Assembly: GCF_022846255.1 (NCBI RefSeq)
Contig: NZ_AP025682.1
Length of the DNA stretch: 64,000 bases
DNA from: Escherichia coli
GTDB lineage: Bacteria; Pseudomonadota; Gammaproteobacteria; Enterobacterales; Enterobacteriaceae
Reading direction: 5' to 3' (one strand)
Below the pieces are notes generated by a model. It worked only from the letters and a program-made list of their open reading frames with translations, was not told where the DNA came from and made no database searches. The position numbers and the translations under genes are program-made. Numbering within the stretch: the first letter of the stretch is position 1; every line of letters starts with the position of its first letter. Below are positions 28,248-37,525 of the stretch, piece after piece.

Positions 28248-29936
28248 ATGAGTGGTGAAAAAAAGGCGAAAGGCTGGCGGTTTTATGGCCTTGTTGGTTT
28301 TGGGGCAATAGCGCTGCTATCCGCTGGCGTATGGGCATTACAATACTCTGGCAGTGGGCCAGAAAAAACGTTGTCGCCACTGGTGGTGCACAACAATCTG
28401 CAAATCGATCTCAATGAGCCGGACCTCTTTCTCGACAGCGACTCTCTGAGCCAGCTTCCCAAAGATCTCCTTACCATTCCGTTTCTCCACGATATTCTGA
28501 GCGAAGATTTCGTTTTCTATTATCAGAATCATGCTGATCGTCTGGGTATTGAAGGCAGCATTCGCCGCATTGTCTATGAACACGATCTCACGCTGAAAGA
28601 TAAGCTCTTTTCGTCACTCTTAGATCAGCCCGCGCAGGCGGCGCTGTGGCACGATAAACAAGGCCATCTTTCACATTATATGGTGCTGATCCAGCGCAGT
28701 GGTTTAAGCAAGCTGCTGGAGCCATTGCTGTTTGCCGCTACCAGCGACAGCCAGTTAAGTAAAACGGAAATCAGTAGTATTAAGCTAAATAGTGAAACCA
28801 TCCCGGTTTATCAGTTGCGCTATAACGGCAATAACGCCCTGATGTTCGCAACTTATCAGGACAAGATGCTGGTGTTTTCCAGCACGGACATGCTGTTTAA
28901 AGATGACCAGCAGGATACCGAAGCCGCGGCAATCGCAAGTGATTTGTTAAGTGGTAAGAAACGCTGGGAAACCAGTTTTGGTCTGGAAGAGCGTACTGCC
29001 GAAAAAACGCCAGTACGCCAGCGCATCGTGGTCAGTGCAAATTTGCTGGGTTTTGGCTACCAGCGATTAATGCCTTCTTTTGCTGGTGTGCGCTTCGAAA
29101 TGAGCAACGACGGCTGGCACAGTTTTCTGGCGTTAAATGATGAATCCGCAAGCGTAGATGCCAGTTTCGATTTTACGCCGGTATGGAACAGTATGCCTGC
29201 AGGGGCCAGCTTCTGTGTGGCGGTGCCTTATTCACATGGTATTGCTGAAGAGATGCTTTCCCACATCAGCCAGGAAAACGACAAGCTCAACGGGGCGTTA
29301 GACGGTGGCGCGGGGCTGTGCTGGTATGAAGATTCAAAATTGCAAACTCCGCTGTTTGTCGGTCAGTTTGATGGTTCTGCCGAACAAGTGCAATTGCCAG
29401 GAAAACTGTTTACGCAAAATATTGGTGCGCACGAAAGCAAAGCGCCAGAAGGTGTTTTGCCGGTAAACCAGACTCAGCAGGGCGAAGCGCAAATCTGGCG
29501 TCGCGAAGTGAGTTCCCGATACGGCCAGTATCCGAAAGCGCAGGCGGCGCAACCCGATCAATTAATGTCGGATTATTTTTTCCGCGTGTCGCTGGCGATG
29601 CAAAACAAAACGCTGCTTTTCTCCCTCGATGACACGCTGGTTAATAACGTGCTGCAAACACTGAATAAAACCCGCCCGGCAATGGTGGATGTGATACCCA
29701 CTGACGGCATCGTTCCGCTTTATATCAATCCACAAGGCGTGGCGAAACTGCTGCGTAACGAAACACTGACCAGTTTGCCGAAGAATCTCGAACCGGTTTT
29801 TTATAATGCCGCACAAACTTTATTAATGCCGAAGCTGGACGCTTTATCTCAACAACCGCGTTATGTCATGAAGCTGGCACAGATGGAACCCGGTGCCGCC
29901 TGGCAGTGGCTACCCATAACCTGGCAGCCGCTATGA
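28248..29936 (+). CDS. yfaA: YfaA (DUF2138) membrane-anchored/exported protein, 562 aa
   Basis: ATG 28248 with SD aagga 28235-28239; N-terminal hydrophobic anchor; the TTG at 28200 used by the ORF track is less likely. Confidence 0.8.
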
Positions 29937-30556
29937 GGCACGGACTGCTGGCGCTGATTTGCTGGCTGTGTTGTGTTGTTGCCCATAGCGAAATGCTGAA
30001 TGTCGAACAATCCGGGCTGTTTCGCGCGTGGTTTGTACGCATTGCACAGGAACAGCTCCGCCAGGGGCCAAGTCCGCGCTGGTATCAGCAGGATTGTGCG
30101 GGCCTGGTGCGATTTTCGGCGAACGAAGCGCTGAAAATTCACGACAGCAAATGGCTAAAAAGTAACGGTATAGCAAGTCAGTATTTGCCGCCTGAAATGA
30201 CGCTAACACCTGAACAGCGTCAACTGGCGCAAAACTGGAATCAGGGGAACGGAAAAACCGGCCCCTATGTGACCGCGATTAATTTGATTCAATATAACAG
30301 CCAGTTCATTGGCCAGGACATAAACCAGGCGCTGCCTGGCGATATGATTTTTTTCGATCAGGGCGATGCCCAGCACTTAATGGTCTGGATGGGGCGTTAC
30401 GTCATCTACCACACCGGAAGCGCCACGAAAACTGACAACGGAATGCGCGCAGTCAGTCTGCAACAACTTATGACATGGAAGGACACCCGATGGATACCCA
30501 ACGATTCCAATCCCAATTTCATTGGCATTTATCGTTTAAATTTTCTGGCGCGATAG
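29933..30556 (+). CDS. yfaT: YfaT (DUF1175) exported protein, 207 aa
   Basis: ATG overlaps yfaA stop (ATGA); signal peptide [19 protein letters not shown]. Confidence 0.8.
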
Positions 30557-36744: not shown

Positions 36745-36748
36745 TGCT

Positions 36749-37525
36749 ATGCGAAAGATTTTTCTTCCGTTGTTACTGGTGGCGCTTTCGCCTGTCGCTC
36801 ACAGTGAAGGTGTGCAGGAAGTCGAGATTGATGCACCGCTCTCTGGCTGGCATCCGGCAGAGGGTGAAGATGCCAGTTTTTCACAATCGATCAATTACCC
36901 GGCGTCGTCCGTCAACATGGCAGATGATCAAAATATCTCAGCGCAGATCCGCGGCAAAATAAAGAATTATGCTGCGGCGGGTAAAGTTCAGCAGGGCCGG
37001 CTGGTGGTCAACGGTGCCAGTATGCCGCAGAGAATTGAATCCGATGGTTCATTTGCACGCCCTTATATTTTCACGGAAGGCAGCAACAGCGTGCAGGTCA
37101 TCAGCCCGGATGGGCAAAGCCGGCAAAAAATGCAGTTTTACTCAACGCCGGGTACAGGAACGATTCGTGCACGTTTACGGCTGGTTCTCTCGTGGGATAC
37201 GGACAATACCGATCTCGATCTCCATGTTGTCACGCCCGATGGCGAACACGCCTGGTACGGTAACACGGTGCTGAAAAACAGTGGTGCACTGGATATGGAT
37301 GTCACGACGGGGTACGGACCCGAGATTTTCGCCATGCCAGCGCCGATTCACGGACGTTATCAGGTGTATATCAACTACTATGGCGGACGCAGCGAAACGG
37401 AATTGACGACCGCCCAACTGACGCTGATCACCGATGAAGGATCGGTCAATGAGAAACAGGAAACATTTATTGTACCGATGCGTAATGCTGGCGAGCTGAC
37501 GCTGGTGAAAAGTTTTGACTGGTGA
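36749..37525 (+). CDS. yfaP: YfaP (DUF2135) exported protein, 258 aa
   Basis: Signal peptide MRKIFLPLLLVALSPVAHS; starts 4 nt after yfaQ stop. Confidence 0.8.
   Translation: MRKIFLPLLLVALSPVAHSEGVQEVEIDAPLSGWHPAEGEDASFSQSINYPASSVNMADDQNISAQIRGKIKNYAAAGKVQQGRLVVNGASMPQRIESDGSFARPYIFTEGSNSVQVISPDGQSRQKMQFYSTPGTGTIRARLRLVLSWDTDNTDLDLHVVTPDGEHAWYGNTVLKNSGALDMDVTTGYGPEIFAMPAPIHGRYQVYINYYGGRSETELTTAQLTLITDEGSVNEKQETFIVPMRNAGELTLVKSFDW

Follow-up and report, generated by a model that had tools for sequence, protein, structure and literature searches.

What do the five adjoining genes that lie between gyrA and the ato genes of Escherichia coli encode, and has the same system been described elsewhere under another name? 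The genes yfaA, yfaT, yfaS, yfaQ, and yfaP occupy positions 28,248 to 37,525 of a 64,000-nucleotide stretch of E. coli DNA (RefSeq assembly GCF_022846255.1, contig NZ_AP025682.1), referred to below as the window; unless otherwise stated, all features are on its forward strand. We conclude, with a probability of about 0.8, that this block represents an E. coli orthologue, in a five-gene form, of the Mag system, and that it acts as a periplasmic trap protecting the cell envelope. The system is already known and annotated, and no new kind of element is involved: thousands of genomes have these genes named and annotated, the pseudogene of K-12 is recorded as such, and the orthologous system has been characterized both biochemically and genetically. 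The yfa neighborhood was reportedly first described by Budd et al. in 2004 (Genome Biol 5:R38). An earlier note, made from the letters of the window, had called this its least functionally understood block, a description that is overstated, since three papers deal with the orthologous Mag system, one of them a 2025 report of protection against type VI secretion system (T6SS) effectors (PMC12663445).

The operon of the type II bacterial alpha-2-macroglobulin (A2M) has been studied in Pseudomonas aeruginosa as magABCDEF (PA4492 to PA4487), and E. coli carries both types of A2M (PMC3735191, PMC5764988). MagA, MagB, MagD, and MagF form a periplasmic complex associated with the inner membrane (PMC3735191), the evidence for the partners in Pseudomonas coming from pull-down, analytical ultracentrifugation, and small-angle X-ray scattering. 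MagB, a protein of 589 residues with one transmembrane helix, is needed for the stability of MagD (PMC5764988). MagC and MagE did not form a stable binary complex with MagD, and MagE fractionated with the cytoplasm despite its signal peptide. The bait region of MagD is cut by trypsin, chymotrypsin, and papain, and a MagD variant with an engineered tobacco etch virus (TEV) protease site in the bait trapped the TEV protease noncovalently after bait cleavage (PMC5764988). Deletion of magB or magC abolishes the processing of MagD to a 100-kDa form, and loss of magE alters it (PMC5764988). MagD changes conformation on binding of human neutrophil elastase (PMC3735191), and a reduced virulence of magD mutants in a model of chronic infection is cited in PMC5764988. 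In 2025, magD of P. aeruginosa was found to protect against VgrG3 and Tae1, two T6SS effectors that target peptidoglycan (PMC12663445).

Orthologous loci and correspondence with the Mag operon

One genome per species was scanned with an alignment of the YfaS family, leading to the identification of 297 relatives, and 80 loci were fetched. The homologues of the five genes followed one another in the order yfaA-yfaT-yfaS-yfaQ-yfaP, and in the same orientation, in every locus with enough flanking sequence. The modal gaps at the four successive junctions were −16 or −4, −67, +1, and +3 nucleotides.

In about 70 Pseudomonas loci, the position of yfaA is that of the gene located between magA and magC. 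The Pseudomonas loci and one gammaproteobacterial metagenome-assembled genome contained an extra upstream gene encoding a protein of 262 residues, with a signal peptide and approximately 40% identity to YfaP. Two genes encoding DUF2135 proteins were accordingly found in 62 of the 80 loci, these being the Pseudomonas-type loci with enough upstream flank. A magA-type gene was not found in the window, to which the E. coli search was confined, nor in the Enterobacterales loci, which covered Escherichia species, Superficieibacter, Serratia, Edaphovirga, and Citrobacter youngae and contained one DUF2135 gene each; in one locus (L002), with a flank that ends inside yfaQ, no DUF2135 gene was found. 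Thus, for want of a magA-type gene, the E. coli cluster is a five-gene variant (magBCDEF). On sequence grounds, MagB is assigned to YfaA, MagC to YfaT, MagD to YfaS, MagE to YfaQ, and MagF to YfaP, with MagA and MagF as DUF2135 paralogues. Every tested feature of Mag membership was found in the cluster, with the exception of magA.

The likeness to the P. aeruginosa operon includes the B-C-D-E-F gene order, the long overlap between the third and fourth mag genes (C and D) with tight coupling in both systems, and the presence of a single N-terminal transmembrane helix, predicted in YfaA, as in MagB. YfaS has the NRSER sequence of the MagD-type proteins and a predicted signal peptide, with no CxEQ motif and no conserved lipobox. 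The two systems differ by the absence of the upstream DUF2135 paralogue MagA from the Enterobacterales copies, by a further decay of the thioester remnant in YfaS (GGVIN versus GGVEQ in most Pseudomonas proteins), by the lack in YfaS of a second in-frame methionine after the overlap, and by the gyrA/ato context of the cluster in the E. coli chromosome.

YfaS from E. coli is 74% identical to its Superficieibacter counterpart and 52 to 56% identical to those of Serratia, Edaphovirga, and C. youngae. The latter value is the same as that for Pseudomonas, suggesting more than one horizontal acquisition. Compared with L010 to L081, the Enterobacterales copies (L002 to L009 and L080) are patchy in distribution and deeply split.

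YfaS, a type II alpha-2-macroglobulin

The profile search envisaged in the earlier note detected MG2 (E = 6.7e−19), A2M_BRD (1.9e−17), A2M (3e−12), and bMG10 (1.1e−5) in YfaS; in the same Pfam scan, the thioester domain and the receptor-binding domain had no match. Full-length comparison with the alpha-2-macroglobulins from about 70 species of Pseudomonas gave 52 to 56% identity, which identifies YfaS, by homology, as a type II bacterial A2M and the orthologue of MagD. In phmmer searches, YfaS had no direct match to any solved bacterial A2M, and the only matches were weak ones to CD109 and C5 (E of about 2e−3).

A C.EQ motif was absent from the entire YfaS protein. A degenerate thioester site was located at positions 33,682 to 33,726 (YfaS residues 1065 to 1079), which aligns with YPYGCLEQTASGLFP of ECAM, the GGVIN sequence of YfaS facing GCLEQ of YfhM/ECAM. 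BLASTP comparison of YfaS with YfhM from K-12 gave 23% identity over 278 residues in the MG2 region. The alignment of the thioester sites corresponds to a second, weak high-scoring segment pair (E = 0.1), in which the context of the motif matches. As judged from this alignment, YfaS retains the entry motif of the thioester domain, from which the Cys, Glu, and Gln residues are gone.

Across the family, the complete motif YPYGCVEQT was found in 12 of 78 MagD/YfaS-type proteins, all encoded in full mag-type operons (loci L011, L012, L018, L023, L025, L027, L030, L031, L039, L044, L070, and L081) from species including Pseudomonas citronellolis, P. panipatensis, P. indica, P. ullengensis, and P. 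viridiflava. The rule that type II proteins lack a thioester is therefore not universal. At the same position, most Pseudomonas proteins have GGVEQ and the Enterobacterales proteins GGV(I/V)N, so that the motif appears to decay stepwise across the family.

The bait region spans positions 33,013 to 33,099 (YfaS residues 842 to 870). Within it, TNRSERR (residues 851 to 857) corresponds to ANRSERG of MagD, which was mapped to residues 847 to 853 (PMC5764988), and KANRSERG was found in the two Pseudomonas loci displayed (L013 and L039). Unexpectedly for a bait, this segment ranks with the most highly conserved portions of the family, having majority-residue fractions of 0.92 to 0.98.

Comparison with other macroglobulins helps to place YfaS. 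Like the type I proteins, namely ECAM/YfhM (with PbpC) and Sa-A2M from Salmonella, it is an A2M that contains multiple MG domains, a bait region, and MG10 and that is probably periplasmic and associated with the inner membrane; its gene is likewise paired with that of a peptidoglycan-related partner, and the motif at the entry of the thioester domain aligns. Unlike the type I proteins, YfaS lacks the thioester Cys and Gln residues and a conserved lipobox, its presumed partners are four other proteins and not penicillin-binding protein (PBP) 1c, and trapping by the MagD type is noncovalent (PMC5764988). The cluster is thereby distinct from the type I ECAM/PbpC system. With the eukaryotic proteins (A2M, C3 to C5, and CD109), YfaS shares MG2-type domains and matches to the Pfam families MG2, A2M_BRD, and A2M. 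It differs from them by the absence of a thioester and of a match to the receptor-binding domain, by its conserved bait, and by its predicted periplasmic location. Moreover, MagD forms 1:1 complexes with accessory partners and not homo-oligomers (PMC5764988).

A host-directed role was the original idea for bacterial A2Ms, according to which YfaS would be a colonization factor acting against proteases of the host (neutrophil elastase or gut proteases, for instance) that have passed a damaged outer membrane. The conformational change of MagD on elastase binding (PMC3735191), the reduced virulence of magD mutants in the chronic infection model (cited in PMC5764988), and the near universality of the cluster in E. 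coli, which is both a gut commensal and a pathogen, are in keeping with this idea. However, most of the 80 loci come from Pseudomonas of soil, plants, and water, so that a function confined to animal hosts is improbable. The bait shows conservation and not diversification, and the sole clean phenotype so far is interbacterial (PMC12663445). We therefore regard a host-directed function as quite unlikely to be the main one.

Partner proteins and export signals

Export signals were sought with a heuristic based on a Lys/Arg-containing n-region, an uncharged stretch of 14 to 27 residues, and an AXA-type cleavage site. A signal was predicted in all five proteins of the window and in 61 to 77 of the 75 to 78 orthologues of each protein. 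The N-terminal export signals reported in the earlier note were thus recovered, except that in YfaA the signal is more likely to be an uncleaved membrane anchor, by analogy with published results on MagB. It is a 20-residue helix, modeled as a helix from residues 11 to 33 by AlphaFold2 with a predicted local distance difference test (pLDDT) score of 77. For YfaS, the predicted cleavage site is ANA|DD. The lipobox-like sequence IAAC inside the signal peptide (residues 22 to 25; positions 30,553 to 30,564) was considered as evidence that YfaS is a lipoprotein, and this idea was rejected because the sequence is not conserved, being present in 3 of 77 orthologues, all from some Escherichia. The Cys is replaced by Tyr in a close relative within Escherichia, and the motif is probably fortuitous.

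YfaA matched Pfam DUF2138 (E = 9e−285) and PRK11410 (“hypothetical protein”), and it is the only one of the five proteins to be named by NCBIfam. Its model gave modest matches to periplasmic domains similar to those of Mog1, PsbP, and DcrB. Its orthologues comprise 560 to 590 residues with a single N-terminal helix, and YfaA is the probable counterpart of the inner-membrane anchor MagB. YfaT matched DUF1175 and, weakly, NLPC_P60. Its residues 21 to 206 matched the sequence of “MagC” in the Protein Data Bank (PDB) entry 7BK8 with an E value of 9.1e−103, which identifies YfaT, again by homology, as the MagC orthologue. The putative catalytic residue of this NlpC/P60-like protein is Cys55 (positions 30,095 to 30,097). 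YfaP contains DUF2135 and is 50 to 57% identical to the downstream Pseudomonas copy and 37 to 43% identical to the upstream copy, MagA; these values designate YfaP as the orthologue of MagF and a paralogue of MagA. An NCBIfam match of YfaP to BADH (E = 8e−4) was far below the cutoff of that family and was rejected. Sequence searches in the PDB produced no match for YfaA, YfaQ, or YfaP, and the literature search on yfaA, yfaT, yfaQ, yfaP, and DUF2300 returned nothing substantive on E. coli. The description of the four partners as DUF-only proteins needs revision, since YfaT is the orthologue of a protein with a crystal structure (7BK8) and YfaQ has a SpoIID domain.

The envelope complex proposed in the earlier note is borne out in part. 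In P. aeruginosa, MagD shares its inner-membrane location with MagA, MagB, and MagF (PMC3735191, PMC5764988), in agreement with such a complex. Co-assembly of all five proteins is an overstatement, since in Pseudomonas stable binding to MagD was seen for the counterparts of YfaA and YfaP, and for MagA, but not for MagC or MagE.

Predicted fold of YfaQ and peptidoglycan

YfaQ, the likely counterpart of MagE, has two Pfam DUF2300 matches and a SpoIID domain. An AlphaFold2 model built from 36 orthologues (pLDDT of 82.6) retrieved β-lactamases and BlaR1 in Foldseek searches, with E values of about 1e−5 and a probability of 1.00. In this predicted model, the N-terminal half adopts the alpha/beta fold characteristic of the serine β-lactamase/PBP superfamily, with four strands followed by a helix that opens with S60-L-W-K63 (S60-x-x-K63; positions 35,272 to 35,283), a strand bearing K195-T-W197 (positions 35,677 to 35,685), and a strand bearing GFAGW. 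S108-C-G is present at the level of the second motif, the third motif is KTW and not KTG, and GFAGW recalls the GWxxGW sequence of class D enzymes. The order of the elements (strands, S-x-x-K helix, K-T-x, and G-[WF]-x-G-W) is shared with class D β-lactamases and BlaR1/MecR1. In the C-terminal, SpoIID-like half, E334 (positions 36,094 to 36,096) falls in the Glu-containing motif that SpoIID proteins conserve, and this residue, together with the Pfam match, constitutes the likeness to the SpoIID lytic transglycosylases. S60-x-x-K63, K195-T-W197, GFAGW, and E334 are invariant in the orthologues.

Sequence comparisons did not connect the N-terminal half of YfaQ to known β-lactamases or PBPs. The Pfam scan of YfaQ detected no β-lactamase or transpeptidase match, and the profile of the N-terminal domain found no link to a β-lactamase or PBP among PDB sequences. 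Comparison of this profile with OXA-48 by hhalign gave a probability of 0.1%, the OXA-48 sequence having been verified at 100% identity, and only DUF2300 proteins were retrieved from 5.8 billion proteins. Because sequence homology is undetectable and KTW replaces KTG, the N-terminal half is described here as having a predicted serine β-lactamase/PBP-like fold, and YfaQ is not filed as a member of that family. If real, the fold would parallel the pairing of type I A2Ms with PBP1c and would fit the peptidoglycan-related phenotype in Pseudomonas. No counterpart of a fusion of PBP-like and SpoIID-like domains next to an A2M was found in the literature searched.

These observations raise a tentative alternative, namely that the system mainly watches over or repairs peptidoglycan and is not a general protease trap. 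YfaS would be activated by a specific cleavage of its bait, possibly by YfaT, and would capture or block peptidoglycan hydrolases, while YfaQ and YfaT would bind or remodel the damaged wall, in parallel with the type I A2M-PBP1c pair. The invariant motifs of YfaQ, the alignment of E334 with the SpoIID motif, and the highly conserved bait speak for this possibility, as do the Cys and His residues of the NlpC/P60 fold kept by YfaT/MagC and the loss of the 100-kDa form of MagD in the magB and magC deletion mutants (PMC5764988). The protection conferred by magD is, in addition, specific to T6SS effectors that target peptidoglycan (PMC12663445). However, the PBP-like assignment comes from a predicted structure to which the sequence searches found no link, the replacement of KTG by KTW may block a canonical active site, and MagE was reported to be cytoplasmic. 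MagD also traps a protease in vitro and has a bait open to trypsin, chymotrypsin, and papain. This alternative overlaps with an envelope-protecting trap and does not exclude it.

Operon organization

The open reading frame (ORF) listing placed yfaA at positions 28,248 to 29,936 (562 residues), yfaT at 29,933 to 30,556 (207 residues), yfaS at 30,490 to 35,094 (1,534 residues), yfaQ at 35,095 to 36,744 (549 residues; GTG start codon), and yfaP at 36,749 to 37,525 (258 residues). These coordinates and lengths match the RefSeq annotation of K-12 MG1655. The junctions, derived from the listing and read directly in the sequence, are −4, −67, 0, and +4 nucleotides, in agreement with the earlier description of an ATGA overlap between yfaA and yfaT, an overlap between yfaT and yfaS (67 nucleotides), a GTG codon adjacent to the yfaS stop codon, and a 4-nucleotide gap before yfaP. 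The GTG of yfaQ abuts the TAA of yfaS (positions 35,092 to 35,097) in a shared reading frame, and loss of the yfaS stop codon would therefore fuse the two proteins. Several E. coli protein entries of 1,359 to 1,422 residues combine A2M and DUF2300/SpoIID Pfam domains (P0037, P0043, P0057, and P0059); they look like stop-loss fusions or annotation run-throughs.

Upstream, the unit is bounded by two tandem hairpin terminators 3′ of gyrA (positions 28,117 to 28,139 and 28,147 to 28,176), each followed by a U-run. Their minimum free energy is −31 kcal/mol (z = −4.97), and none of 200 shuffled sequences folded equally well. About 70 nucleotides separate these terminators from the yfaA ATG, and this spacer contains a further stable hairpin (positions 28,186 to 28,211). 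Downstream, a bidirectional intrinsic terminator at positions 37,554 to 37,598, which is not assigned to either strand, separates yfaP from the convergent atoB gene, its stem being flanked by an A-run on the 5′ side and by a U-run on the 3′ side (−21.8 kcal/mol; z = −6.45). There was no internal terminator within the five-gene block, and matches to the sigma-70 consensus inside the operon were below the level expected from shuffled sequences. The tight junctions, the lack of an internal terminator, and the order and spacing kept in 80 species together support the prediction, already made in the earlier note, that yfaA-yfaT-yfaS-yfaQ-yfaP is one operon.

Start of yfaS and leader of yfaA

The ATG and first 22 codons of yfaS lie within the 3′ end of yfaT, in the 67-nucleotide overlap at positions 30,490 to 30,556. 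The ATG was found at the equivalent position in 76 to 77 of 79 loci. In the yfaT frame, the codons at this site are CGA|TGG in 77 of 77 loci, although CGA accounts for only 4.8% of the Arg codons in the Pseudomonas copies. The retention of CGA|TGG despite the rarity of CGA therefore provides strong evidence that the ATG is selected as a start codon, and the overlap itself implies a probable translational coupling of yfaS to yfaT. A second in-frame Met codon is present just past the overlap in 70 of 72 orthologues outside Escherichia and Superficieibacter, and it is missing from YfaS in these two genera. A downstream start for yfaS was rejected on two grounds: the window offers no other start codon ahead of the hydrophobic core, and use of the rare CGA codon has preserved the upstream ATG.

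A predicted hairpin at positions 28,232 to 28,244 (CACA-AGGAA-UGUG) displays the GGA of the yfaA Shine-Dalgarno sequence in its loop. Its sequence is identical in K-12, Escherichia albertii, E. whittamii, and other Escherichia spp. The consensus for CsrA is RUACARGGAUGU, to which the yfaA hairpin is close, and we infer a resemblance of this candidate element to a CsrA/RsmA binding site. The leaders of Pseudomonas magA have GGA motifs both within the loop of a hairpin and at their Shine-Dalgarno sequence. Since the mag operon of P. aeruginosa is under RetS/RsmA control (PMC3735191), control of the E. coli operon by CsrA is a reasonable hypothesis, resting on analogy; the literature search on yfaA with CsrA found nothing.

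A CsrA-responsive leader would also be part of a broader proposal, in which the type II A2M cluster is not a generic trap but a self-contained machine for sensing or repairing damage to peptidoglycan. YfaQ/MagE would be a secreted wall enzyme or sensor of two domains, a serine-PBP/BlaR-like one fused to one resembling the SpoIID lytic transglycosylases; YfaT/MagC, by virtue of a papain-like fold, would process YfaS/MagD at its bait; and the unit would be switched on posttranscriptionally by CsrA/RsmA. We consider this proposal unlikely. If true, it would endow E. coli with a noncognate immunity against peptidoglycan-targeting T6SS effectors and against lysozyme-type attack, in a parallel to the type I pairing of A2M with PBP1c.

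Status of yfaS in E. coli and selection on the cluster

In the window, yfaS is a single frame of 1,534 codons with no internal stop. The K-12 pseudogene b4500 has the same length (4,605 nucleotides) and differs from it by 145 substitutions, one of which creates its only nonsense codon (W1368*): codon 1368, at positions 34,591 to 34,593, is TGG (Trp) in the window and TGA in K-12 MG1655. The earlier note was therefore correct in describing yfaS as a single frame in this DNA and as a disrupted pseudogene in MG1655. Taking the intact frame for a peculiarity of the window would be wrong. The exact K-12 81-mer around codon 1368 was detected in 364 of 5,426 complete E. coli genomes, the carriers listed being MG1655, C600, J53, and other laboratory derivatives, and the cluster was found at a coverage of at least 80% in 5,178 of the 5,426 genomes (about 95%). 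On these counts, E. coli normally has an intact yfaS, and it is K-12 that departs from this rule.

For all five genes, the ratio of nonsynonymous to synonymous substitution rates (dN/dS) ranged from 0.00 to 0.12 in comparisons with K-12 and with E. albertii (0.06 to 0.075 for yfaS), indicating that the cluster is functional and not decaying. Could it be, nonetheless, a dispensable relic drifting toward loss in E. coli? The nonsense codon of K-12, the insertion sequence in yfaQ and partial deletions in some genomes (H2, H24, and H25), the 29 genomes with no match to the cluster, and the fixation of a yfaS mutation in a laboratory evolution line (PMC10882980) could be read in this way. Against this stand the dN/dS values of all five genes, the retention of at least 80% of the cluster by 95% of the complete genomes, and the confinement of the K-12 allele to at most 364 genomes, mostly laboratory derivatives. 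Fine features have also been kept, such as the overlapped start codon with its rare CGA and the hairpin at the yfaA ribosome-binding site. The relic explanation is thus highly improbable, being largely refuted by the selection data.

Individual genomes showed various lesions. In STEC307, IS2 was inserted in yfaQ; in 53_142304, the yfaP end of the cluster was unmatched (coverage of 93%); in KFu022, the cluster was almost wholly absent; and 29 of the 5,426 genomes were devoid of any match. The yfa block (positions 28,100 to 37,600) had a best identity of 98.1% to the 5,426 genomes, most being at about 96.7%, and gyrA (positions 25,472 to 28,099) had a best identity of 99.2%. The dS between the window and K-12 was 0.07 to 0.21. 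These values place the window a little outside the bulk of the E. coli sequenced so far.

Proposed mechanism

A single transcript beginning in the short spacer between gyrA and yfaA would carry the five genes, and their translation would be coupled by the overlapping or abutting start and stop codons. The products would be exported by Sec, as suggested by their N-terminal signals. YfaS, an A2M of about 165 kDa with multiple MG domains and no thioester, would be held at the periplasmic face of the inner membrane by the single N-terminal helix of YfaA, as deduced from MagB, and would be bound 1:1 by YfaP, as deduced from MagF. Cleavage of the bait (TNRSERR) would change the conformation of YfaS, and the attacking enzyme would be held noncovalently, as found for MagD. 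YfaT (NlpC/P60-like) and YfaQ may tie the complex to peptidoglycan and to the processing of YfaS. The net role would be to shield the periplasm and cell wall from proteases of the host or of competitors and from T6SS effectors that target peptidoglycan. By analogy with the Mag system, the function is likely to be that of a periplasmic trap anchored to the inner membrane.

Several points weigh against this model of an envelope-protecting Mag orthologue. P. aeruginosa itself is absent from the 80 loci, and the correspondence with Mag was established via other Pseudomonas species, the 7BK8 entry, and published descriptions. MagA, one of the three proven partners of MagD, is missing from E. coli, as judged from the window and the loci. 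The roles of YfaT and YfaQ are ones that we infer, because MagC and MagE did not bind MagD stably and MagE was cytoplasmic. A conserved bait, unlike the hypervariable baits of broad-spectrum eukaryotic A2Ms, fits a specific processing event better than a generic bait for proteases. The signal peptides were predicted by one heuristic, and the sigma-70 scan found no consensus promoter in the gyrA-yfaA spacer. Finally, a 2024 paper calls YfaS uncharacterized (PMC10882980), a paper in which a yfaS mutation was fixed in a laboratory evolution line, and experiments on the E. coli proteins were not found in the literature.

The presence of the cluster in about 95% of complete E. coli genomes, under strong purifying selection, gives these questions a general bearing. 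Since the standard laboratory strain, K-12, has a null allele of yfaS that is specific to its lineage, YfaS has been lacking from most genetic work on E. coli. The 2025 result in Pseudomonas makes the E. coli version, by analogy, a plausible contributor to competition in the gut and to defense of the envelope. Three testable leads emerge, namely the PBP-like plus SpoIID-like fold predicted for YfaQ, the conservation of the bait, and the putative CsrA-type hairpin; they leave the classification of the system unaffected.

Other sequence features

The Rfam search of positions 27,500 to 38,000 identified no family at its gathering score. None of the five proteins had a match in PADLOC, and the cluster is therefore not a catalogued antiphage system. 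The GC content of the window was 0.49 to 0.56, with no compositional anomaly. A repeat search revealed only two short internal repeats and no signature of a mobile element. One repeat is a 29-nucleotide direct repeat (positions 32,480 to 32,508 and 32,786 to 32,814; 83% identity) that encodes DKTLYQPGE and EKTHYQPGE; two successive MG domains begin with these conserved sequences, which mirror the internal domain repeat of the macroglobulin.

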